Source: Escherichia coli
GTDB taxonomy: Bacteria; Pseudomonadota; Gammaproteobacteria; Enterobacterales; Enterobacteriaceae
Reading direction: 5' to 3' (one strand)
Length of the DNA stretch: 64,000 nucleotides
Assembly: GCF_044324875.1 (NCBI RefSeq)
Contig: NZ_CP172185.1
The notes beneath the pieces were generated by a model. That model did not search any database and was not told the origin of the DNA. It saw nothing but the letters and a program-made list of their open reading frames with translations. A program made the translations under genes and the position numbers. Positions 15 through 59,658 of this stretch are shown here, piece after piece (within the stretch, counting starts at the first letter, position 1; each line of letters starts with the position of its first letter).

Positions 15-167
15 CTACTTCTTCGGTTCGTAAGCGAGAACAGCCTTAAACTCAATATTACGTTCCTTCACCGTAAACTCACACAGCGAGTCTCCGACCA
101 GAAGCGTAAATCCCAGCACCGTCAAACACAGCACTATGACTGCCGCAAGGGCATATTTCGTCAGCAT
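15..167 (-). CDS. hokE: Type I toxin HokE (Hok/Gef family small membrane toxin), 50 aa
   Basis: Reverse-strand translation from the internal Met gives [50 protein letters not shown], the Hok family sequence; the ORF-track entry 15..203 is an N-terminal over-extension. Confidence 0.85.
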
Positions 168-267
168 GTTTATATTGCCTCCATGCGAAGAAGGGACTAC
201 CATCCAAATTGTTTGGGTTTGGAGTGGCAGCCCCAGGGTTGATAGAAATATCGTCCTGGGGCTTCAT
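79..267 (-). CDS. mokE: Possible mokE (modulator-of-killing reading frame overlapping hokE in another frame)
   Basis: 62-aa ORF that starts upstream of hokE and overlaps it out of frame, as mok does in hok/sok loci; positional inference only. Confidence 0.3.
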
Positions 268-600
268 CTTTCCAGACCTCAGAGTTAACCTGAAACCGGA
301 AAGCTTCAGGCACCCGCCGTTATCTTACCCTTCCTTAGCAAAATAGCTGTTTATTTATACAGTAAGTCCTGTTTCGGACTTCTCAATCCTCATTTGATCA
401 ACTGAAGCTGAACCCGTTTTTTTCTGCATGCCTCAATCGTCAAAATTCTTCGCCACCAGTCCGCACTGCCATAACTTGTCATATTGCAAAATGTAGCCAA
501 TTTGCTTCAGTCACCATCATCAAAAAAAGAAACATTCCAGAACTTCCGCATCTCGCCCAGTCGCTCCCACTTCTATACTGAATAGAAAACGCCAACATAA

Positions 601-10885: not shown

Positions 10886-12268
10886 TTATTGCTGCCAACC
10901 GCCACCAAGTGCGGTATATAAAGAAATTTCGTTGACCTGACGGGCATAATTCAGGTCAAGTAAGGTTTGTCGGGTTGCAAATAAAGAACGCTCGGCATCC
11001 AGCACTTCCAGATAACTGACTGCGCCGTGCTGATATAATGCCCGCGCCCGTTGCAAAGTAATTTGCAGCGACGCCAGATAACGCTGCTGGGCGCTGATTT
11101 GATCGTTCAGGCTTTGACGTAATGCCAGCGCATCTGCCACTTCTTTAAAGGCGTTCTGGATTTTCTGTTCATAATTCACTACCGACTGCTGCTGGCGAAT
11201 TTCGGCGATATCCAGATTGGCCTGGTTGCGTCCGGCATTAAAAATGGGGATCTCAATTTTAGGAATAAAATTCCACATCCCGCTGCTGGCGTTAAATAAT
11301 GACGACAGATCGCTGCTGGCGGTTGATATTCCGCTGGTCAGGCTTATAGATGGGAAAAATGCCGCGCGTGCGGCCCCAATATTGGCATTAGCCGCCATTA
11401 ACGCGTGTTCAGCTTCCATAATATCCGGGCGCTGCAATAAGATTTGCGACGACAAGCCCGCCGGTAATTTAACGCTTTGCAGGCTGTCGCTGTTTACTGT
11501 CTGCGCTTGCGGCAGCTTGCCGTAGCTTCCCAATAATAGTTGCAATGCATTATTCGCCTGCGCCAGTTCCCCCTGACGTTTAGCGATGTCGCTGCGGGTA
11601 CTTTCAATCACCCCGCGAGCCTGTTCCAGCGCCAGAACATTGCTGCTACCGGTCAACAGTTGTTTTTCGACAAACGCATATGACTGCTGATAATTACGCA
11701 GCGTTTCTTCGGCTATTTGCAATTGCGCATACGCCAGCTGCTGATTGAAATATCTTTGCGCGACATTAGAAACCAGCAGAATATGCACCGCGCGCTGGGC
11801 TTCCTCAGTGGCTAAATAATTTTGTCGCTCGGCTTCGCTCATGTTCTTTAAGCGACCGAAAAAATCGAGATCAAAGCTGGCGTTAAGGCCAGTCGAGAAC
11901 TCCCGCGTCGTGGCTGAATCGCCTTTAAGATTGCCGCTCCAGCTGCCGCTGCCCTCGCCATTGAGCTGTGGGTAGCGGTCGGCATCGGTCAGACGATATT
12001 GCGCCCGCGCTTCCTGCACTTTCAGCGTCGCCATGCGCAAATCCCGGTTATTCACCAGCGCCTCGCTAATCAGCGTCTTCACCTGATTATCAACAAAAAA
12101 GGTGCGCCAGCCCGCGTTCTGGTAGTTATCTGCTGCGTTAACCAGGCCGTTCTGGTTGAGTGAGAACTGCTGCGGCACGGGCATTGCCGGGCGCTGATAA
12201 TCCGGTGCCAGTGAACAACCGGTTAGCGCAAGGGCCACACAAAATGGCAGAAGTTTACAAGGAGACAT
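10886..12268 (-). CDS. cusC: Outer membrane efflux channel CusC (lipoprotein)
   Basis: OMF family protein; lipobox LTGCS near the N-terminus. Confidence 0.93.
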   Translation of the reverse strand: MSPCKLLPFCVALALTGCSLAPDYQRPAMPVPQQFSLNQNGLVNAADNYQNAGWRTFFVDNQVKTLISEALVNNRDLRMATLKVQEARAQYRLTDADRYPQLNGEGSGSWSGNLKGDSATTREFSTGLNASFDLDFFGRLKNMSEAERQNYLATEEAQRAVHILLVSNVAQRYFNQQLAYAQLQIAEETLRNYQQSYAFVEKQLLTGSSNVLALEQARGVIESTRSDIAKRQGELAQANNALQLLLGSYGKLPQAQTVNSDSLQSVKLPAGLSSQILLQRPDIMEAEHALMAANANIGAARAAFFPSISLTSGISTASSDLSSLFNASSGMWNFIPKIEIPIFNAGRNQANLDIAEIRQQQSVVNYEQKIQNAFKEVADALALRQSLNDQISAQQRYLASLQITLQRARALYQHGAVSYLEVLDAERSLFATRQTLLDLNYARQVNEISLYTALGGGWQQ

Positions 12269-36880: not shown

Positions 36881-38139
36881 TCAACCTATCCCCATGCTTG
36901 CAGCCAGTGCTTCCAGCGCCTGTTCAAAGCAGGCCAACGGTGCCCGCACAGTGCCTGCGCCAATCTGCCCGATCCCCGCCTCTTTATGGGCGATACCGGT
37001 ATTGATGAGTGGCGTAATGCCGGTTTCTACCACGCGACGAATATCCAGCCCCGGCACGCGCCCTGAAAATCCCAGCTTGGGATCTGCAACTGCATATTGC
37101 GTTCAAGGTAAATTTCCGCCATCTCTTCAGATACCGCTCTGGCCGCTTCCATGCCACCCGCACCGACAAAGCGCGTTACGCCAGGCGCTGCGATCATTGC
37201 CGCACCTCCGATACCAAAGGTTTCGGTAATCGCGCTATCGCCCATATCCGGGTTCGCCTGCTCCTGCGAGAAGCCGGTGAAAAACAGACCTTGCGGAGTG
37301 TTTACAGGCGCAGTAAACCAGCGTTCGCCCAGCCCGCTGACCCGAATCCCGAACATATTGCCGTTGCGGGTCATAGCCGTAACGATGCTGCCTGAGCGGA
37401 TCATCGCGCCAGCATCCATCGCCGCCTTGCAGTAGGCCATCGCGAGGTTGAGGAAGAACTGATCGGTCACGCTGAGGAAATCCATCACTTCCGCAATGTG
37501 CTGTTTATCATGATCGAGGCGAGCAATTTGTGGGGCCAGCGTACGCATTAACAGTGCTGAGGAAGCAATATTGCGTTGATGGAACTCATCGCCCATGGTA
37601 ATGCCCTGCGCCATCATCGCGGTGAGATCGATACCGCGCTCCATGCGCCCCAGCGCCGCGCTTAATACTGGCATTAACACATCGCGCATCCAGCGATGGC
37701 GAGTCAGGACATCTTCGCCGTAAGCGCCAAAACGCATCACTTTGCCGATACCTTCGTTGAGGTTGCAGTACGCCCGGTTGCCGTCGGTCACGTTCTCGAC
37801 CACCAGCATCGGCATACTGGCAGAAGTAATGCCGCCCATTGGCCCGACGGCATTCACATGGTGACAAGGAATGAAGTTCACTTCCCCCTGATCCAGCATT
37901 GCCAGCGCCTGCGCTTCATCTTTCGCCCAGCCTTCAAACAGACATGCGCCCACGCACGCCCCTTTCATGGGTCCGGTCATCTCCTGCCAGCGCATTGGCG
38001 GCCCGGCGTGAAGCAGTGTTTTGCCCTCGTTTAGTTCGCTGATAAGTGAAGAAGCCGGTTGCACATCCAGCCAGTGTGGACGAGCACGACGAATTTGTTC
38101 GATAACCGCAGCATTGGCTTGCGCCACTGATGTAAACAT
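36881..38139 (-). pseudogene. ylbE: ylbE (DUF1116) with a frameshift near the 3' end
   Basis: Main frame stops at 37027 after 370 aa. An alternate reverse frame is open from about 37102 to a TGA at 36881..36883 and encodes ...[70 protein letters not shown], ending 10 bp before ylbF. The combined length is about 419 aa. Confidence 0.6.
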
Positions 38140-43235: not shown

Positions 43236-43277
43236 GTCATACCACTCGCCTGATTATTTTTAGCTATGTTGGATTTT

Positions 43278-43304
43278 GCCACGGTTTATACCGTGGCTTT
43301 TTTT
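43278..43304 (+). terminator. Rho-independent terminator of allDCE
   Basis: GCCACGG-TTTATA-CCGTGGC followed by TTTTTTT. Confidence 0.75.
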
Positions 43305-43320
43305 GCGGTAAATTCAGGTA

Positions 43321-49912: not shown

Positions 49913-50689
49913 TTAACGGTACGGATCCATCCAGCGTAAACCGGCTTCCGTGGTGGTTTGGGGTTTATATTCACACCCAACCCAACCGTTGTAGTCAGAA
50001 TTTTCGATTACCTTAAAGAGATAATCATAATTAATTTCTCCGGTCCCCGGTTCGCCGCGATGCGGATTATCGGCAATTTGCAGGTGACCAATTTTATCGG
50101 CCCATTGCGTCATAGTGTTGGTTAATTCACCTTCCATCCGCTGCATGTGATAAATGTCATACTGAATTTTCAAATTGCAGCAACCAACATCATCAATCAA
50201 TTTCAGCGCCTGCCGAGTTCCGGTGAGATAGAAACCATGAATATCAAAATGGTTAATAGGTTCAATCAGTAATAAAATATCTTCTTTCATCAGCATATTC
50301 GCGGCATAACGCAGGTTTTCTACAAGCGTTGCGTGAATCTGTTCACTGCTGAAACCAGCCGGCGTTTTACCGACCAGACAGTTAATTTTTTTATTACCCA
50401 GCGCACGGGCATAACGAATCGCTGCTGCTACGCCATCCCGAAACTCTTCTTCACGGCCAGGAATACAAGCAATACCCCGCTCGCCCGCCGCCCAGTCACC
50501 TGCCGGTAAATTGTGCAACGTATGTTCGAGTTTATTACTCGCCAGCACCTGTTTTAATTCTTCAATGTCATAGTCATAAGGGAACATAAATTCAACGCCG
50601 CGAAAACCACACTGAGCAGCTTTCTCAAAACGGGCGAGAAAATCATATTCACCAAATAACATCGATAAATTAGCAGAGAAACGTAACAT
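49913..50689 (-). CDS. hyi: Hydroxypyruvate isomerase Hyi
   Basis: 258 aa, recognised Hyi. Confidence 0.95.
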   Translation of the reverse strand: MLRFSANLSMLFGEYDFLARFEKAAQCGFRGVEFMFPYDYDIEELKQVLASNKLEHTLHNLPAGDWAAGERGIACIPGREEEFRDGVAAAIRYARALGNKKINCLVGKTPAGFSSEQIHATLVENLRYAANMLMKEDILLLIEPINHFDIHGFYLTGTRQALKLIDDVGCCNLKIQYDIYHMQRMEGELTNTMTQWADKIGHLQIADNPHRGEPGTGEINYDYLFKVIENSDYNGWVGCEYKPQTTTEAGLRWMDPYR

Positions 50690-50701
50690 TATTTATCTCC
50701 T

Positions 50702-52483
50702 TTATTCATAGTGCATGAAGCAGGTTTCAGTCGGTGCATCCACTGCGTTATCGGCGATATCTTCAAATTCCATGACATTATCCAGTTCGCTGCCCATCGA
50801 AATATTGGTCACACGCTCGAGAATAACTTCCACGACTACCGGTACCCGATATTGCGCCATTAAGGCTTTCGCCTGTTCAAAGGCTGGTGCAATATCATCC
50901 GGTTTGAAGACCCGAATAGCTTTACAACCTAAACCTTCCGCTACTTTTACGTGGTCGACGCCGTAACCGTTCACTTCGCTGGAGTTAATATTTTCGAACG
51001 CGAGCTGTACGCAGTAATCCATATCAAACGCGCGCTGCGACTGGCGAATCAGACCCAGATAGGCGTTATTGACCAGTACATGGATGTACGGAATGTTGAA
51101 CTGTGCGCCAACGGCTAATTCTTCAATCAGGAACTGGAAGTCGAAGTCACCGGAAATCGCCACCACATTGCGCTCTGGATCAGCGGCACACACGCCCAGC
51201 GCCGCCGGAATGGTCCAGCCCAACGGGCCTGCCTGCCCACAGTTGATCCAGTGGCGGTCTTTAAAGACATGCAGCATTTGTGCCGCAGCGATTTGTGACA
51301 GGCCAATGGTGGTGACATAACAAACATCGCGACCAAAGGCTTTGTTCATCTCTTCATACACGCGCTGCGGTTTCACCGGCACGTTGTCGAAGTGGGTTTT
51401 GCGCAGCAAAGTGCGTTTGCGCTGCTGGCAGTCGGCGACCCATTCTTTACGACACGGCAGACGACCCGCTTTTTGCATCTCCTGCGCCACTTCAACCAGC
51501 AGTGTCAGCGCCGCTTTAGCATCAGAGACAATGCCGAGATCCGGACACAGCACGCGGCCAATTTGCGTCGGCTCAATATCGATATGAACGATTTTGCGCC
51601 CTTCGGTGTATTTCTCTACCGAACCGGTATGACGGTTCGCAAAACGGTTACCGATACCAAACACCATGTCGGACGCCAGTAGCGTTGCGTTACCGTAACG
51701 ATGCGCGGTTTGCAGACCCACCATCCCGGCCATCAGTTCATGATCGTCGGGAATACAGCCCCAGCCCATCAGCGTTGGGATCACCGGAACGCTGGTCAGT
51801 TCAGCAAACTGTTGTAACAGTGCAGCAGCGTCAGCATTGATTACCCCGCCCCCGGCAACAATCACCGGACGTTCGGCCTGGATTAACATTTCTACAGCTT
51901 TTTCGATCTGCATACGGCTGGCTGCAGGTTTGTAGACCGGCAGCGGTTCGTACATGTCAGGATCAAACTCGATTTCCGCAACCTGAACGTCGAACGGTAA
52001 ATCCACCAGTACCGGACCCGGGCGACCAGAACGCATCAGGTGAAACGCCTGTTGCAGCACACGAGGCACCAGCGCCGCTTCACGAACTGTAACCGCCATT
52101 TTGCTGACCGGTTTAGCAATTGCTTCAATATCAACGGCCTGGAAATCTTCTTTATGCAGACGGGCGCGCGGAGCCTGGCCGGTAATACACAGAATAGGAA
52201 TGGAATCAGCAGAAGCGGAATAGAGCGCGGTGATCATGTCCGTGCCCGCAGGACCGGAAGTCCCCAGACATACGCCGATATTCCCTGCCGTTGCGCGGGT
52301 ATAACCTTCCGCCATGTGCGAAGCACCTTCCACATGACGCGCCAGAATGTGACGAATACCGCCGTGCTTACGCATCGCTGAATAGAACGGATTGATTGCT
52401 GCTCCCGGAACGCCGAAGGCGGTGGTGATACCTTCTTTCTCCAGCACATACATTGCCGCGTCAACGGCTCTCATTTTTGCCAT
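50702..52483 (-). CDS. gcl: Glyoxylate carboligase (tartronate-semialdehyde synthase) Gcl
   Basis: Start at internal Met [18 protein letters not shown]..., 593 aa, ThDP enzyme. Confidence 0.95.
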
Positions 52484-52503
52484 TTTATTCCTACCTCTAT
52501 TAA

Positions 52504-52520
52504 TTGGAAAAATTTTCCAA
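52504..52520. promoter_or_regulatory. AllR operator in the gcl promoter
   Basis: Perfect palindrome TTGGAAAAATTTTCCAA, 20-40 bp upstream of the gcl start. Confidence 0.75.
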
Positions 52521-52535
52521 CTTTCAAATTTTGTC

Positions 52536-52560
52536 AAAAAAACCCGCTCCGCAGAGCGGG
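52536..52560 (-). terminator. Rho-independent terminator of allR
   Basis: On the reverse strand, hairpin CCCGCTCTGCGGAGCGGG followed by TTTTTTT, right after the allR stop. Confidence 0.7.
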
Positions 52561-52572
52561 ATGCGACAGACA

Positions 52573-53388
52573 CTATGGATGTGCTTTCAGTCCCAACGCC
52601 GTGCTGATATCGCGGGCGGTGTCTCTGACCAGCTCACCCTGACTGACAAAACGATCTTCTGTCAGTCTTGATGAAGGCCCGGAGATGGAGATAGCGGCAA
52701 CAACGCTACCTACATCATCGTAAATTGCTGAAGCTATACAATTCAGGCCGACAACATGCTCTTCTTTATCTACGGTATAGCCCAGTTCACGCGCTTGTTC
52801 CAGGTCCTTCAGCAAGGTGGGCATATCCACAAGCGTAGTTGGCGTAAACTGCTGCAAACCGGTTTGCAGAATGATGCTCATCAACTCCTCTTCCGCCAGC
52901 GGATAAAGCAGCGCTTTGCCCGCACCGGAAGCATGCAGCGGCAGACGACTGCCCAGTGGCGCGCACATCCTGACCATCGATTTACACTCTAACTGACCAA
53001 TTAATACCGCTTCATTACCGTTACGGATCGCGACATTGACCGTTTCGCCGGAAAGTAACATCAGGCGGCGCATAAACGGCCCGGCGACGGAGAGGACATC
53101 GCGGTTATGGATGTACGCCGCACCGACGTTAAAGACACCTAATCCTATATGCCACCAGCCTAACTGACTGTCCTGATAGACAAAATCCGCTGCCTGTAAA
53201 ACCTTCAGCAAGCGAAAGGTCGTGGAGAGCGGCAAATCCAGATTGAGAGAAATATCGCTAACCGACGAACTTCCCCCACTTTTTTCCAGATATTGCAGAA
53301 TCGCAATTCCCCGCTCTAACGCCTGTGCGCCCTTCTGTGCCACAGGCTCCGCCTGTCCTGGCCTGCCGCGCCGTCTAACTTCCGTCAT
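52573..53388 (-). CDS. allR: Allantoin/glyoxylate repressor AllR (IclR family)
   Basis: 271 aa, recognised AllR. Confidence 0.95.
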
Positions 53389-53465
53389 ACCTACGTTAAC
53401 TCCGACCTACAAGTGAGCATAAACAATGAACAATTAGTTTATCTTATGCAAGTCGGTTGCAGGCG

Positions 53466-53948
53466 TCACGCAAAACAGAGTTCCTGTTCAGGAATACTTT
53501 CAACATCACAGTTGTCACTGCCGCCGCGATCGATGGTCAGAAAATCGGTGACGCGCTGCCAGGCGAAAAGTGGGTGATGCCAGACGTTACGATGGTAATT
53601 CACTCCCTGTTCGCCGTTGGTAATAAACGCCCGCAGAGTTGACAGGTCTAGTTTGTCGTCACCTAACGCCACGACCACCACAAACACTTCACCTTTCATC
53701 GGGATAAAGGCCTGAGTACCCAGCGGATGACGTTCGAGTTCGTGAATGGTCAGCGGCAGATTCGCCGGTTGCGCGCGGTTAATGCTGATAAGCGTACGGT
53801 CTTGCTCAAGAATCTCAACCAGCGCCAAATCGTGGTAACGCTCCACCAGTCCATTGTTAATATGGAAAAAATCCCGTTTCTGCGTTTCGATTACGTCGCC
53901 ATAAGCACTAAAGGCTTCCTGACTTAACGGTAATACCTGAAGTTTCAT
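53466..53948 (-). CDS. allA: Ureidoglycolate lyase AllA
   Basis: 160 aa, recognised AllA. Confidence 0.95.
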
Positions 53949-54053
53949 CTTTTTGTCCTTATAACATAATTCCGTTCAACCACCGCCGACCGGTCAGCTT
54001 GGTTTCAATAACAGGCAATCTAAAACCTTAAGAGAACAACATCAACACAAAAG

Positions 54054-54070
54054 TTGGAATATTTTTCCAA
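54054..54070. promoter_or_regulatory. AllR operator in the divergent allA-allS intergenic region
   Basis: TTGGAATATTTTTCCAA, one mismatch from the perfect palindrome seen at the gcl promoter. Confidence 0.7.
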
Positions 54071-54177
54071 AACTAGATTTAGCCCACAAATTGAACAGGG
54101 TTATCATGTAAAAATACTGATAAATCAGAGGATAAGAAAATCACGCAACTTGCGGATTTAAAAGGGGATACCTGAAG

Positions 54178-55104
54178 ATGTTCGATCCAGAAACCTTGCG
54201 GACTTTCATTGCTGTTGCTGAAACAGGAAGTTTTTCAAAAGCGGCAGAACGATTATGTAAAACCACGGCGACAATCAGTTATCGCATTAAACTTCTGGAA
54301 GAGAATACCGGAGTGGCGCTGTTTTTCCGCACGACTCGCAGCGTGACGTTGACAGCGGCTGGCGAGCATCTACTTTCTCAGGCCAGAGACTGGCTGAGCT
54401 GGCTGGAAAGTATGCCCAGCGAGCTGCAACAGGTGAATGATGGTGTGGAACGCCAGGTGAATATTGTCATCAACAACCTGCTCTACAACCCCCAGGCCGT
54501 CGCCCAGCTGCTGGCGTGGCTGAATGAGCGTTACCCCTTTACCCAGTTTCACATCTCCCGACAAATCTATATGGGCGTCTGGGACTCGCTATTGTACGAA
54601 GGTTTTTCGCTGGCTATCGGCGTCACGGGAACTGAGGCGCTGGCAAATACCTTTAGTCTTGATCCCTTAGGATCGGTGCAATGGCGCTTTGTCATAGCGG
54701 CGGATCATCCGCTGGCGAACGTTGAAGAGCCGCTAACAGAAGCTCAGTTGCGTCGCTTTCCGGCGGTCAATATTGAAGACAGCGCCCGCACCTTAACCAA
54801 ACGCGTCGCCTGGCGATTGCCAGGGCAAAAAGAGATTATTGTTCCTGATATGGAAACGAAAATCGCCGCCCATCTGGCGGGCGTTGGCATTGGTTTTTTG
54901 CCAAAATCACTTTGCCAGTCAATGATCGATAATCAACAACTGGTCAGCCGGGTAATCCCAACGATGCGCCCTCCTTCGCCATTGAGTCTGGCATGGCGCA
55001 AATTTGGCAGCGGCAAAGCGGTAGAAGATATTGTGACCTTGTTTACCCAACGCAGGCCGGAAATCAGCGGATTTTTAGAAATTTTCGGCAACCCACGCAG
55101 TTAA
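54178..55104 (+). CDS. allS: LysR-family activator of allantoin utilisation AllS
   Basis: 308 aa, LysR HTH plus substrate-binding domain. Confidence 0.95.
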
Positions 55105-56330: not shown

Positions 56331-56999
56331 CTACCAGTTGCCATAGGGATATTTTTTATCTTTGATAAACTCAAGTACATATTCATCGTCTCCAAGAGAA
56401 AAATCATGCCGGGAAATTCCTTTACACATTTCCATTTTTTCACCTGAAACCGTTTCTATCAGAATCTGCTTATCCGTCAGGCGAATATTGGGCTTGTCAG
56501 GTTTCTCCAGCCATACGCGTACTTTTCCTTCTGGAGCCAGACCGATTAACAGATACCGCAGATAATACTTTTCACTGCCACCGCCTGGTGGTGAATAAGG
56601 TGTGAGCATCAATTTCCAGACGTCTCCCGCCAGCGTTATCCAGGTTTCATACACTTTTTTATCAATCACTGAATCCCAGCAGAAATGGATAGACATAGGG
56701 GGATTTTTGGCTTTATTGAATGATAACACCCCAACCCGAAGATTATCTCTCCACTGACCAATAGTAGTGGAACTCGGAGCGGTAGCATCCAGCGTTCTGA
56801 ACTGATAATAGATACCATCAGTGTCCAATAGTTCTACATAGGTAACTTGTGCTGGTAGCGCATTAGGGTAGAAAAAAAGGAAATACCATTCATCATAGGG
56901 TGCAAGCAGTGATATTTTTTCTTTCGCTGCTGTCTGGACTGATCCGGCTATCATTAACGCAATGGTTAATCTATAAATTATTTTAGCTGTTATTTTCAT
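56331..56999 (-). CDS. Putative periplasmic immunity protein, paralog 2 (orphan immunity candidate)
   Basis: 222 aa with Sec signal peptide (MKITAKIIYRLTIALMIAGSVQTAAKEK); C-terminal half nearly identical to the upstream paralog; sits 3' of the Tle1-like effector. Confidence 0.65.
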   Translation of the reverse strand: MKITAKIIYRLTIALMIAGSVQTAAKEKISLLAPYDEWYFLFFYPNALPAQVTYVELLDTDGIYYQFRTLDATAPSSTTIGQWRDNLRVGVLSFNKAKNPPMSIHFCWDSVIDKKVYETWITLAGDVWKLMLTPYSPPGGGSEKYYLRYLLIGLAPEGKVRVWLEKPDKPNIRLTDKQILIETVSGEKMEMCKGISRHDFSLGDDEYVLEFIKDKKYPYGNW

Positions 57000-57005
57000 T
57001 GTTAC

Positions 57006-57665
57006 TTACCAGTTACCATAGGGATATTTTTTATCTTTGATAAACTCAAGAACATATTCATCGTCTCCAAGAGAAAAATCATGCCGGGAAATTCCTTTAC
57101 ACATTTCCATTTTTTCACCTGAAACCGTTTCTATCAGAATCTGCTTATCCGTCAGGCGAATATTGGGTTTGTCACGTTTATTAAGCCATACCCGTACTTT
57201 TCCTTCCGGAGCCAGCCCGATTAACAGAAACCGCAGATAATACTTTTCACTGCCACCGCATGGTGGTGAATAAGGTGTGAGCATCAATTTCCAGACGTCT
57301 CCCGCCAGTGTTATCCAGGTTTCATACACTTTTTTATCAATCACTGAATCCCAGCAAAAATGGATAGACATTGGTGGGTTTTTGGCTTTATTAAAAACTG
57401 ACGACATCCCTGATACTTTCTCGCTCCATTGTCCAACACTTCCTGGACTGGCATTGGTACTGGCCAGCGTTCTGAACTGATAATAGATGCCATCGGTATC
57501 TAATAATTCCACATAGGTAACTTGTGCTGGTAGGGAATCAGGGTAGAAAAAATTGAAATACCACTCATCATAGGGTGCAAGCAACAATATTTTTTCTTTC
57601 GCTGCTGCGTTAAAGTTAAGAACCATAGACGTAATAACAAACAGTAATTTTATATTAAATTCCAT
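57006..57665 (-). CDS. Putative periplasmic immunity protein, paralog 1 (likely cognate to the adjacent Tle1-like effector)
   Basis: Start at internal ATG 57665 (MEFNIKLLFVITSMVLNFNAAAKEK, signal peptide); this start overlaps the effector stop as ATGGAATTTAA; about 219 aa. Confidence 0.7.
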   Translation of the reverse strand: MEFNIKLLFVITSMVLNFNAAAKEKILLLAPYDEWYFNFFYPDSLPAQVTYVELLDTDGIYYQFRTLASTNASPGSVGQWSEKVSGMSSVFNKAKNPPMSIHFCWDSVIDKKVYETWITLAGDVWKLMLTPYSPPCGGSEKYYLRFLLIGLAPEGKVRVWLNKRDKPNIRLTDKQILIETVSGEKMEMCKGISRHDFSLGDDEYVLEFIKDKKYPYGNW

Positions 57666-59658
57666 TTTGTTTATTCCCTTGCATATCGTATATAGTTCTG
57701 GTCCAATTTTCATCCGGCCGATTAACAAAACTAAACGTCTTAAACGCTGATACTTCAGCAGACACCTTATTTTTTAATCGATAATCGACGGTATTCCAGT
57801 TGGAAGAACAGTGTAAATATTTCCCAATGGTTTTAAGCTCATCATCAGAAAAAGGCATCGGCGCTGTACACAAGAGAACGGCTTTACCCTGAGAAATTGC
57901 TTTTTCACATATTACCTTTAAATGACTGGGAACTTTTAATTCCTTATCAGCAACAGAAATGGCATCAAATACTACCCCTGCCTCTTTAGCGACTTCATAC
58001 ATTACTCTTAACGCAATCTTTGACCAGTCATTGGTGATCGTTCTGCGAAATGTCACCGCTGCAGCGACCCGTTTTCTCACATTACCTAAGTGGTCAGGCG
58101 ACGCTATTTCATCAATATTGGATTCAATTTTTAGGACACCAGAAGGCAGAATCGGAGCCAGCGTCGAATAGCGCCACAATAACTCTGCCTGCTGTACTGC
58201 TTTTTGGTAAGCGCTTGTCGCTTCCATCGGCACATTTCCCAGTACCGTTTCAATCGCCGGGCGACTTAAAAACAGGTACTCATCTTCCTGTGGGTCATAA
58301 CCGCCACCAATATCAGCATGTGATCCAGGGAAACTTAATTCTGGCCAGCTTTCCTTTATGCTGTTGAGGCAAAAGTTATAGCGACATTCGTTCATTGCTG
58401 TGAGCTGGAATACATGTTTGGCCACACCTGGCGGTAACTTCACTTTTACCGGAAAGTTATTACCATCATGAGGGTCAAAACCATCCATCAGCCCTCCGAT
58501 GGCTGCAACTGTGTCAAAAATACCTAAAAATTGCACTTCCCCGGAAGGTTTACCTAAATATTCAACTGACTGAAATGCCGTCGCAATGGTTTTAATCAGT
58601 ACGGGATCACGTTCAAATACGCGATTAGTAAAGTGCCGTGCGGCTGCCGCCCCACGACTAAAGCCAAATACGTCAAACTGTAGACGCTTAATTACTAGTT
58701 TAGCATCCTTTAAATCAACAATAATCTCTGCCAGTGTCTCACGAAGCAGTGATATCGCACGGTCAGTTTTGGCAATTACCCCAGTATCATTATTTCCTAG
58801 CCCCATTCCTACCAGAGAGTCTGCTTTATTATTTTCAGTGCCAATACCTTCAATATATATTTTTTCCTGAATATTAAATACATCATCATCTAAAACTAAT
58901 TGCCGATGATACAACTCATTCAACCAATGAATATTCGTATAGTAATTCAAATAGCTCTGTACTCCGGATCCCGTTTTACCCTGCTTGCTCATACATTGTT
59001 TATTAAACGAGGCCAAATCCTGGACATCCAGACCATAGGTTTCTGGTTGGCAAAAACTCATACGTAAATTCGTATTGGTTAAATTGTTTCCTGTGCCATC
59101 AAAGAATACGCCAATGGTGAGGATAATTTCTCGTTCAGGCGGTATTTCTGGTTTTTCCTCAACAGGTAAGAGCGTCGGTGGGAAAAGGCGATTATAATTT
59201 TCAGGTGTGAGTAAATAACTAAATTCTGTATTGGCTGTAAGATGCTTACAGTAGATATATTTGTAGTGTATTGTTATATATTGATAGTCGAGTTCATTTT
59301 CTTTTATTATAATCTGATTCTGAGTTAACGTTGCACCGCGGACTTCAATATAATAATAACTTTCCCATTTCCCATATTTATTAATACGATAAAAATCAAA
59401 CTCAAAACGGCATCGTTCGTTATTATTAATGCAATTCATCAGCAGCGGTGAGCTTTTATCGAGAATTTTACAAAATTGTATCGCTTGATGATTAATGCCA
59501 AATCCTGTATTACTCACTCCTCCCTGAAAACTAAAAACAAATATTTCATCTTCATGTCCCTGTTGATACCGATTCCCGACAGAGGCTTGCGTCCCGCATC
59601 CTGCAGAAATATTACCTTGTTGCTCCCCTGTAATGCGTAAATATATAATGTCACCCAT
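57655..59658 (-). CDS. Hcp-domain / DUF2235 (Tle1-like phospholipase) fusion protein, a putative T6SS Hcp-linked effector, 667 aa
   Basis: N-terminal ~155 aa match the Hcp/TssD family (IYLRITGEQQGNISAGCGTQASVGNRYQQGHEDEIFV..., KSSPLL motif). A Pro-rich linker (PPTLLPVEEKPEIPPERE) follows, then DUF2235 hallmarks: FFDGTGNN, nucleophile elbow GFSRGA, FDTVAA and HADIGGGY. Confidence 0.85.
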   Translation of the reverse strand: MGDIIYLRITGEQQGNISAGCGTQASVGNRYQQGHEDEIFVFSFQGGVSNTGFGINHQAIQFCKILDKSSPLLMNCINNNERCRFEFDFYRINKYGKWESYYYIEVRGATLTQNQIIIKENELDYQYITIHYKYIYCKHLTANTEFSYLLTPENYNRLFPPTLLPVEEKPEIPPEREIILTIGVFFDGTGNNLTNTNLRMSFCQPETYGLDVQDLASFNKQCMSKQGKTGSGVQSYLNYYTNIHWLNELYHRQLVLDDDVFNIQEKIYIEGIGTENNKADSLVGMGLGNNDTGVIAKTDRAISLLRETLAEIIVDLKDAKLVIKRLQFDVFGFSRGAAAARHFTNRVFERDPVLIKTIATAFQSVEYLGKPSGEVQFLGIFDTVAAIGGLMDGFDPHDGNNFPVKVKLPPGVAKHVFQLTAMNECRYNFCLNSIKESWPELSFPGSHADIGGGYDPQEDEYLFLSRPAIETVLGNVPMEATSAYQKAVQQAELLWRYSTLAPILPSGVLKIESNIDEIASPDHLGNVRKRVAAAVTFRRTITNDWSKIALRVMYEVAKEAGVVFDAISVADKELKVPSHLKVICEKAISQGKAVLLCTAPMPFSDDELKTIGKYLHCSSNWNTVDYRLKNKVSAEVSAFKTFSFVNRPDENWTRTIYDMQGNKQNGI

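Follow-up and report, generated by a model that had tools for sequence, protein, structure and literature searches.

Two palindromes at the AllR control regions of a non-K-12 Escherichia coli

Which protein reads the two near-identical palindromes that lie upstream of gcl and between the divergent genes allS and allA in Escherichia coli, and how would it act from there? We addressed this question in a 64-kb stretch of genomic DNA, the whole of which is called the window here. The span of interest, 52484-54177, is the stretch enclosed by the gcl ATG (52483, minus strand) and the allS ATG (54178). Sequence, position, statistics, identity to the K-12 sites, an identical repressor and conservation across species all lead to the same answer, and we therefore consider it almost certain that the palindromes are the two high-affinity operators of AllR, which is itself encoded between them.

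The palindromes and their genetic surroundings

The two sites and the genes and signals around them are as follows. Identities of gcl, allR, allA, allS, mnmH and hyi were taken from NCBIfam equivalog models.

52504-52520, unstranded: AllR operator at the gcl promoter, TTGGAAAAATTTTCCAA, centre 52512
54054-54070, unstranded: AllR operator in the divergent allS-allA intergenic region, TTGGAATATTTTTCCAA, centre 54062
49913-50689, minus strand: hyi (NCBIfam equivalog)
50702-52483, minus strand: gcl, glyoxylate carboligase (TIGR01504, 1281 bits), first gene of the AllR-repressed gcl-glxK operon
52536-52562, minus strand: intrinsic terminator of allR, stem CCCGCTC/GAGCGGG (52543-52560) followed by T7, from a terminator scan
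52536-52770, minus strand: allZ (K-12 b4831), small RNA from the allR 3' end (RefSeq annotation, 97.4% identity over 235 nt)
52573-53388, minus strand: allR, IclR-family repressor of 271 aa (NF007548 equivalog, 619 bits against a cut-off of 406)
53466-53948, minus strand: allA, ureidoglycolate lyase (NF002948, 360 bits), AllR-repressed
54178-55104, plus strand: allS, LysR-type activator of the allD and allF operons (NF007501, 642 bits), AllR-repressed (PMC12535856)
55173-56279, plus strand: mnmH/selU (NCBIfam equivalog)

A preliminary description of this DNA had placed near-identical 17-mers at 52504-52520 and 54054-54070, and direct reading finds both at exactly these coordinates. The gcl box TTGGAAAAATTTTCCAA is a perfect 8+1+8 palindrome. 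In the allS-allA box TTGGAATATTTTTCCAA seven of the eight arm positions are paired, around a perfect 6+5+6 core. Read on the plus strand the two differ at two of 17 positions, and with the allS-allA box taken on the minus strand at one of 17. The gcl box sits in the 89-bp allR-gcl spacer, its centre 29 bp upstream of the gcl ATG, and the allS-allA box stands at about the middle of a 229-bp divergent spacer, with 116 bp between its centre and the start codon of allS and 114 bp on the allA side. These locations, upstream of gcl and within the allS-allA spacer, are those expected of AllR boxes, as judged from the NCBIfam equivalogs and from collinearity with K-12. The same description spoke of two sites bracketing a control region at two AllR-controlled promoters. 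The two sites are real, but what they bracket is simply allA and allR; likewise there are two control regions, but these hold three promoters, those of allS, allA and gcl.

Could such a pair arise by chance in A/T-rich DNA, as palindromes without any function? The intergenic DNA is indeed A/T-rich, and weaker lookalikes are as frequent as chance predicts: TGGAA-N5-TTCCA, with its ten specified bases, is found 28 times at up to two mismatches against 29.5 expected. The exact pattern TTGGAA-W5-TTCCAA (TTGGAAWWWWWTTCCAA), in contrast, has two matches in the 64-kb window, which are the two boxes themselves (0.00 expected), and none of 100 dinucleotide-preserving shuffles contained one. With up to two mismatches there are three matches against 0.28 expected. 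The third, at 11260-11276 (two mismatches, 10.8 bits), lies inside a 460-aa open reading frame and was treated as a chance occurrence. Given these counts and the conservation of both sites in 19 other species described below, a functionless coincidence is vanishingly improbable.

The repressor encoded between the sites is intact. It is identical to K-12 AllR in 271 of 271 residues despite 10 nucleotide differences in the gene, and its C-terminal domain matches PDB 1TF1, the AllR effector domain (E=2e-110). The AllR protein of Escherichia whittamii is also 100% identical, but at 94.3% DNA identity this species was rejected as the origin of the window. A cognate AllR is thus encoded in the same genome as both boxes. 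The small RNA AllZ, verified by northern blot (PMC8175672), shares the allR terminator and falls within the 52484-54177 span; it is separate from the AllR operator system.

The wider regulon had been described as complete apart from a frameshift in ylbE, which is borne out: the order of the 17 genes that extend from allS to ybcF is that of K-12, and they align without gaps except in ylbE.

36881-38139, minus strand: ylbE, with a 1-bp deletion near 37052

At this point K-12 reads GCGTGCCTGGGG and the window GCGTGCC-GGGG, and the open reading frame is truncated to 370 aa, compared with 419 aa in K-12. The gene is intact in the current K-12 RefSeq record (419 aa), so the frameshift is not a K-12 lesion. 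It measures 1,260 nt in all of the closest complete genomes, against 1,259 nt in the window, and the exact 65-mer around the deletion occurs in none of 5,426 complete E. coli genomes. The frameshift is either private to this strain, in which case it affects the oxamate branch, or an assembly error. Also within the allantoin cluster, the allE-glxK spacer carries an Rfam match to the enterobacterial small RNA STnc480 (43242-43308, minus strand; 84.9 bits against a gathering threshold of 72).

Further away, an orphan type VI secretion module (56331-59658, minus strand) is located between mnmH/selU and ybbP, where K-12 has the rhsD cluster. In it an Hcp carries a fused Tle1-like phospholipase domain (667 aa); two DUF2931 genes, probably immunity genes, come next. 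The segment is present in 573 of the 5,426 complete E. coli genomes. The window also contains a sok antitoxin RNA of a hok/sok-type toxin-antitoxin locus (159-315, minus strand; Rfam, 80.3 bits against a gathering threshold of 59) and a tRNA-Arg with anticodon TCT (21767-21843, minus strand; ARAGORN and Rfam).

Published AllR sites and the AllR box across species

How do the two boxes compare with sites that have already been assigned to AllR? A survey of the IclR family lists the AllR motif as KTTGGAAWAWTWTTCCAAC in its Table 1, citing Rintoul 2002 (PMC8222616). Both boxes fit this motif, and the core TTGGAA-WAWTW-TTCCAA is exact in at least one orientation. Curated AllR sites of another consensus or at another location had been named in the preliminary description as the outcome that would speak against its reading; the published motif matches both boxes.

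Comparison with K-12 itself leads in the same direction. A 37-mer, AAATCTAGTTTTGGAAAAATATTCCAACTTTTGTATT, has been quoted as the K-12 AllR recognition site (PMC13300388), and window positions 54044-54080 on the minus strand reproduce it but for one SNP that lies 8 bp outside the box; the allS-allA box is identical to the K-12 site. The gcl box departs from K-12 at the dyad-centre base alone, with a further SNP 2 bp outside the box. Because this base lies on the dyad axis, it cannot add to the two-fold symmetry. Read in the gcl sense, position 52512 is A in K-12 and T in the window as well as in strains 118UI, O157:H7 Z892 and 22-250; among these E. coli strains the centre base of the gcl operator is variable and all 16 arm positions are fixed. 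The window belongs to E. coli but not to K-12: its genes are 95.7-98.8% identical to those of MG1655, the control region is 99.4% identical to that of the best-matching complete genomes, and the orientation is reversed relative to K-12. Experimental work on K-12 has shown that an 82-bp fragment equivalent to 52491-52572 confers AllR repression on a reporter (PMC13300388), and ChIP-seq describes AllR as highly specific, its one or few strong sites standing out well above the background (PMC12059191). Both palindromes are AllR operators already described in E. coli, and the regulation they point to is textbook regulation with nothing new in it.

An independent view comes from other genera. A scan with the AllR protein, taking one genome per species, returned 23 loci. 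The allS/allA-allR-gcl arrangement is conserved in 19 enterobacterial species outside Escherichia, with AllR 66-91% identical; they include members of Citrobacter, Klebsiella, Raoultella, Superficieibacter, Buttiauxella, Izhakiella, Atlantibacter and Providencia. In all 19 a TGGAA-N5-TTCCA box with no more than one mismatch is found in both intergenic regions, and it occurs almost nowhere else in these loci of ~8.8 kb. When 22 sequences upstream of gcl are aligned, the box arms (TTGGAA and TT-CAA) do not vary at all, and neither do the start codon and a part of the allR terminator with its T-run; no other column is invariant. The allS-allA alignment (21 sequences) has the same island of conservation at the box. 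In general the arms are the most conserved intergenic columns, and the five central bases vary but are always A or T. Spacing is kept as well: with a single exception in each set of 19 comparisons, the distance to the box is 110-115 bp for the allA ATG and 27-36 bp for the gcl ATG, and the two boxes are 1,541-1,636 bp apart in every species examined. The conserved distance between the operators (~1.55 kb) is fully accounted for by the lengths of allA and allR.

A weight matrix trained solely on the non-Escherichia sites and scored on the window gives 33.2 bits for the gcl box and 31.7 bits for the allS-allA box. Elsewhere in the window no position exceeds 10.8 bits, and 50 shuffles yielded at most 18.7 bits. 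Among the gcl promoter variants of E. coli that were inspected, the most divergent one (91.9% identity over 62 bp) has altered flanks and an untouched box. Such divergent examples were picked by a short-query megablast against the 5,426 genomes, a search that yields identity bands only and loses many genomes to word size. Taken together, the cross-genus comparison traces the AllR box from Escherichia to Providencia and provides a phylogenetic footprint of it that is both clean and independent.

Inverted repeats of this kind need not be read by a protein. As A/T-rich repeats adjoining promoters they might instead form an RNA hairpin or a cruciform, or serve as an UP element, and the gcl box could be partly transcribed, depending on the true start site. 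The pattern of conservation speaks against all of these. Arms are invariant across genera, and the rare changes are single-sided and uncompensated (TTTTCA in Izhakiella australiensis, TAGAA in Atlantibacter, TTTCAA in I. capsodis), which fits a sequence read by protein and not a base-paired stem. Transcripts from the two inferred promoters of the allS-allA spacer, furthermore, would not include the box, which is upstream of both, and exact GG/CC dinucleotides at a fixed spacing are more than an UP element would require. We regard a role without a bound protein as extremely improbable.

If the boxes are protein operators, is AllR the protein? The sole serious rival is IclR, a paralogous glyoxylate-responsive repressor, which may bind the palindromes mainly or also, so that regulation of gcl, allS and allA would be shared. 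The two regulators are close relatives: the IclR model matches the AllR of the window at E=1.3e-73, and they have glyoxylate-binding residues in common (PMC11323563). Their sites are similar too: of the 14 positions specified in the published IclR consensus TGGAAATNATTTCCA, the gcl box departs at two and the allS-allA box at three. By those mismatches, and by their location at genes other than aceBAK or iclR, the boxes fall outside what defines an IclR site. In each of the loci examined the box is accompanied by allR, and the outer T/A pair at ±8 and the A/T bases at ±1 and ±2 are AllR-specific and conserved. The natural IclR operators of K-12 score 3.1 bits (aceB) and -0.5 bits (iclR) on the AllR-box matrix, as opposed to 32-33 bits for the boxes of the window, so that the two operator sets can be told apart. 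The literature cited assigns the sites to AllR (PMC12535856, PMC8222616, PMC13300388, PMC11323563). A substantial part for IclR here is thus very unlikely, and AllR remains the preferred reader of both palindromes.

Promoters and possible modes of repression

AllR would bind each palindrome as a dimer, with one helix-turn-helix reading each TTGGAA/TTCCAA arm. From one arm centre to the other it is 11 bp, close to a full turn of the helix. What such binding does to transcription depends on where the promoters lie. A simple sigma-70 scan of the sequence found no convincing promoter and a single weak, implausible match, and candidate hexamers were instead taken from conservation:

52532-52537, minus strand: candidate gcl -35 TTGACA, partner AATTTT at 52509-52514, spacer 17 (from sequence)
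52522-52527, minus strand: candidate gcl -35 TTGAAA, partner TTAATA at 52498-52503, spacer 18 (from sequence and alignment)
54017-54045, minus strand: candidate allA promoter, -35 TTGATG at 54040-54045, 17-nt spacer, -10 TAGATT at 54017-54022 (from the 21-sequence alignment)
54107-54115, plus strand: candidate allS extended -10 TGTAAAAAT, in the conserved block ATGnAAAAAT

At gcl there is little room. The allR terminator, whose stem and T-run are conserved across species, ends 16 bp upstream of the operator, and ~46 bp are available between it and the ribosome-binding region GAGGTAGGA (from ~52497). Since the 17-bp box occupies the middle of this space, any sigma-70 promoter of gcl must overlap it, and both candidate pairings do. 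Relative to the gcl start, the operator would be located at about -10 to -25. In other genera the alignment favours TTGAAA-18-TTAATA over TTGACA-17-AATTTT; in Klebsiella, TATAGT follows directly after the gcl box. AllR bound at this site would overlap the core promoter and exclude RNA polymerase. Promoter occlusion at gcl, with a start site placed by inference, is well supported, because the box overlaps any promoter there and because the 82-bp K-12 fragment is AllR-repressed.

The situation between allS and allA is different in geometry. Measured from the inferred promoters, the operator centre falls at ~-52 for allA and ~-60 for allS, and this single operator between back-to-back promoters would repress both. 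As it lies upstream of the inferred -35 elements, plain occlusion alone does not explain repression. AllR might cover more DNA than the palindrome itself, hinder the contacts of the polymerase alpha subunit with this A/T-rich DNA, or assemble into higher-order oligomers.

Two further sets of conserved blocks were noticed in the spacers. On the allS side (54083-54127, plus strand) there are CCACA (54084-54088) and ATGnAAAAATACTnATAAATCA, the latter of which in E. coli includes the palindrome CTGATAAATCAG (54116-54127); both are probably parts of the promoter and start region of allS. In the allA-allR spacer (53389-53465), upstream of allR, the blocks CGTGACGC and (A)TCTTGCATAAGAT form a short inverted repeat that is conserved in most genera, and they may represent the allR promoter or be bound by another factor. 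The palindrome TGCAAGTCGGTTGCA (53447-53461), which overlaps these blocks, was considered as an autoregulatory AllR-like site upstream of allR and set aside: it is found in E. coli only and is not conserved outside Escherichia.

What would release the repressor? In K-12, glyoxylate lowers AllR binding and allantoin is a co-repressor, and AllS then activates allD and allF (PMC12535856, PMC11323563). Identity of both protein and site suggests that glyoxylate-relieved binding carries over to this strain. Glyoxylate would then release AllR and de-repress allS, allA and the gcl operon, and the AllS so produced would activate allD and allF; allantoin, as reported, would strengthen repression by AllR.

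Could additional sites contribute? For tetrameric IclR-family regulators tandem sites are typical, with centres 18-22 bp apart (PMC8222616). In the cross-species comparison we found no conserved second site at 18-22 bp from either box. Two lookalikes were rejected: a resemblance at -18 from the gcl box is confined to E. coli, and a weak, A/T-rich one at 54106-54122, 52 bp away on the allS side, averages -5.3 bits, below the 99th percentile of the background, and overlaps the predicted allS -10, whose conservation has other causes. A RutR box upstream of gcl was reported by Hasegawa 2008, as cited in PMC10163214. The RutR box TTGACCANNTGGTCAA has no match at up to three mismatches in 52000-54300, where the reported site may be more degenerate, or it may lie elsewhere.

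AllR is reported to act as a tetramer, a dimer of dimers. Taken together with the presence of one strong palindrome per control region and the lack of a conserved tandem partner, this raises the idea that one AllR tetramer might bridge both operators, looping out allA and allR and thereby coupling repression of allS, allA and gcl. Such an arrangement is very unlikely.

Comparison with known systems

The proposed bridging would resemble the loop between OL and OR of phage lambda, which encloses cI. With the tandem-site operators of the IclR family, AllR shares membership of a family whose members bind DNA as dimers or tetramers; it departs from them in having a single strong palindrome in each control region. 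The IclR operators of aceBAK and iclR are also comparable: they belong to the same family and have the TGGAA/TTCCA arms, the spacing and the glyoxylate-triggered release in common with the AllR boxes (PMC8222616, PMC11323563). The central bases differ, however, the AllR box adds the outer T/A pair, and other genes are regulated.

The nearest relative is the AllR system of K-12 itself. Beyond annotation the significance of the present analysis is small, but it does establish one point: the AllR/AllS control circuit is standard in a non-K-12 E. coli with both operators intact, and knowledge gained in K-12 transfers directly. Genes, positions, 17-bp palindromes and the AllR protein are the same in the two, and what sets the window apart is a different E. 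coli lineage with SNPs at the centre of the gcl box and in the flanks.
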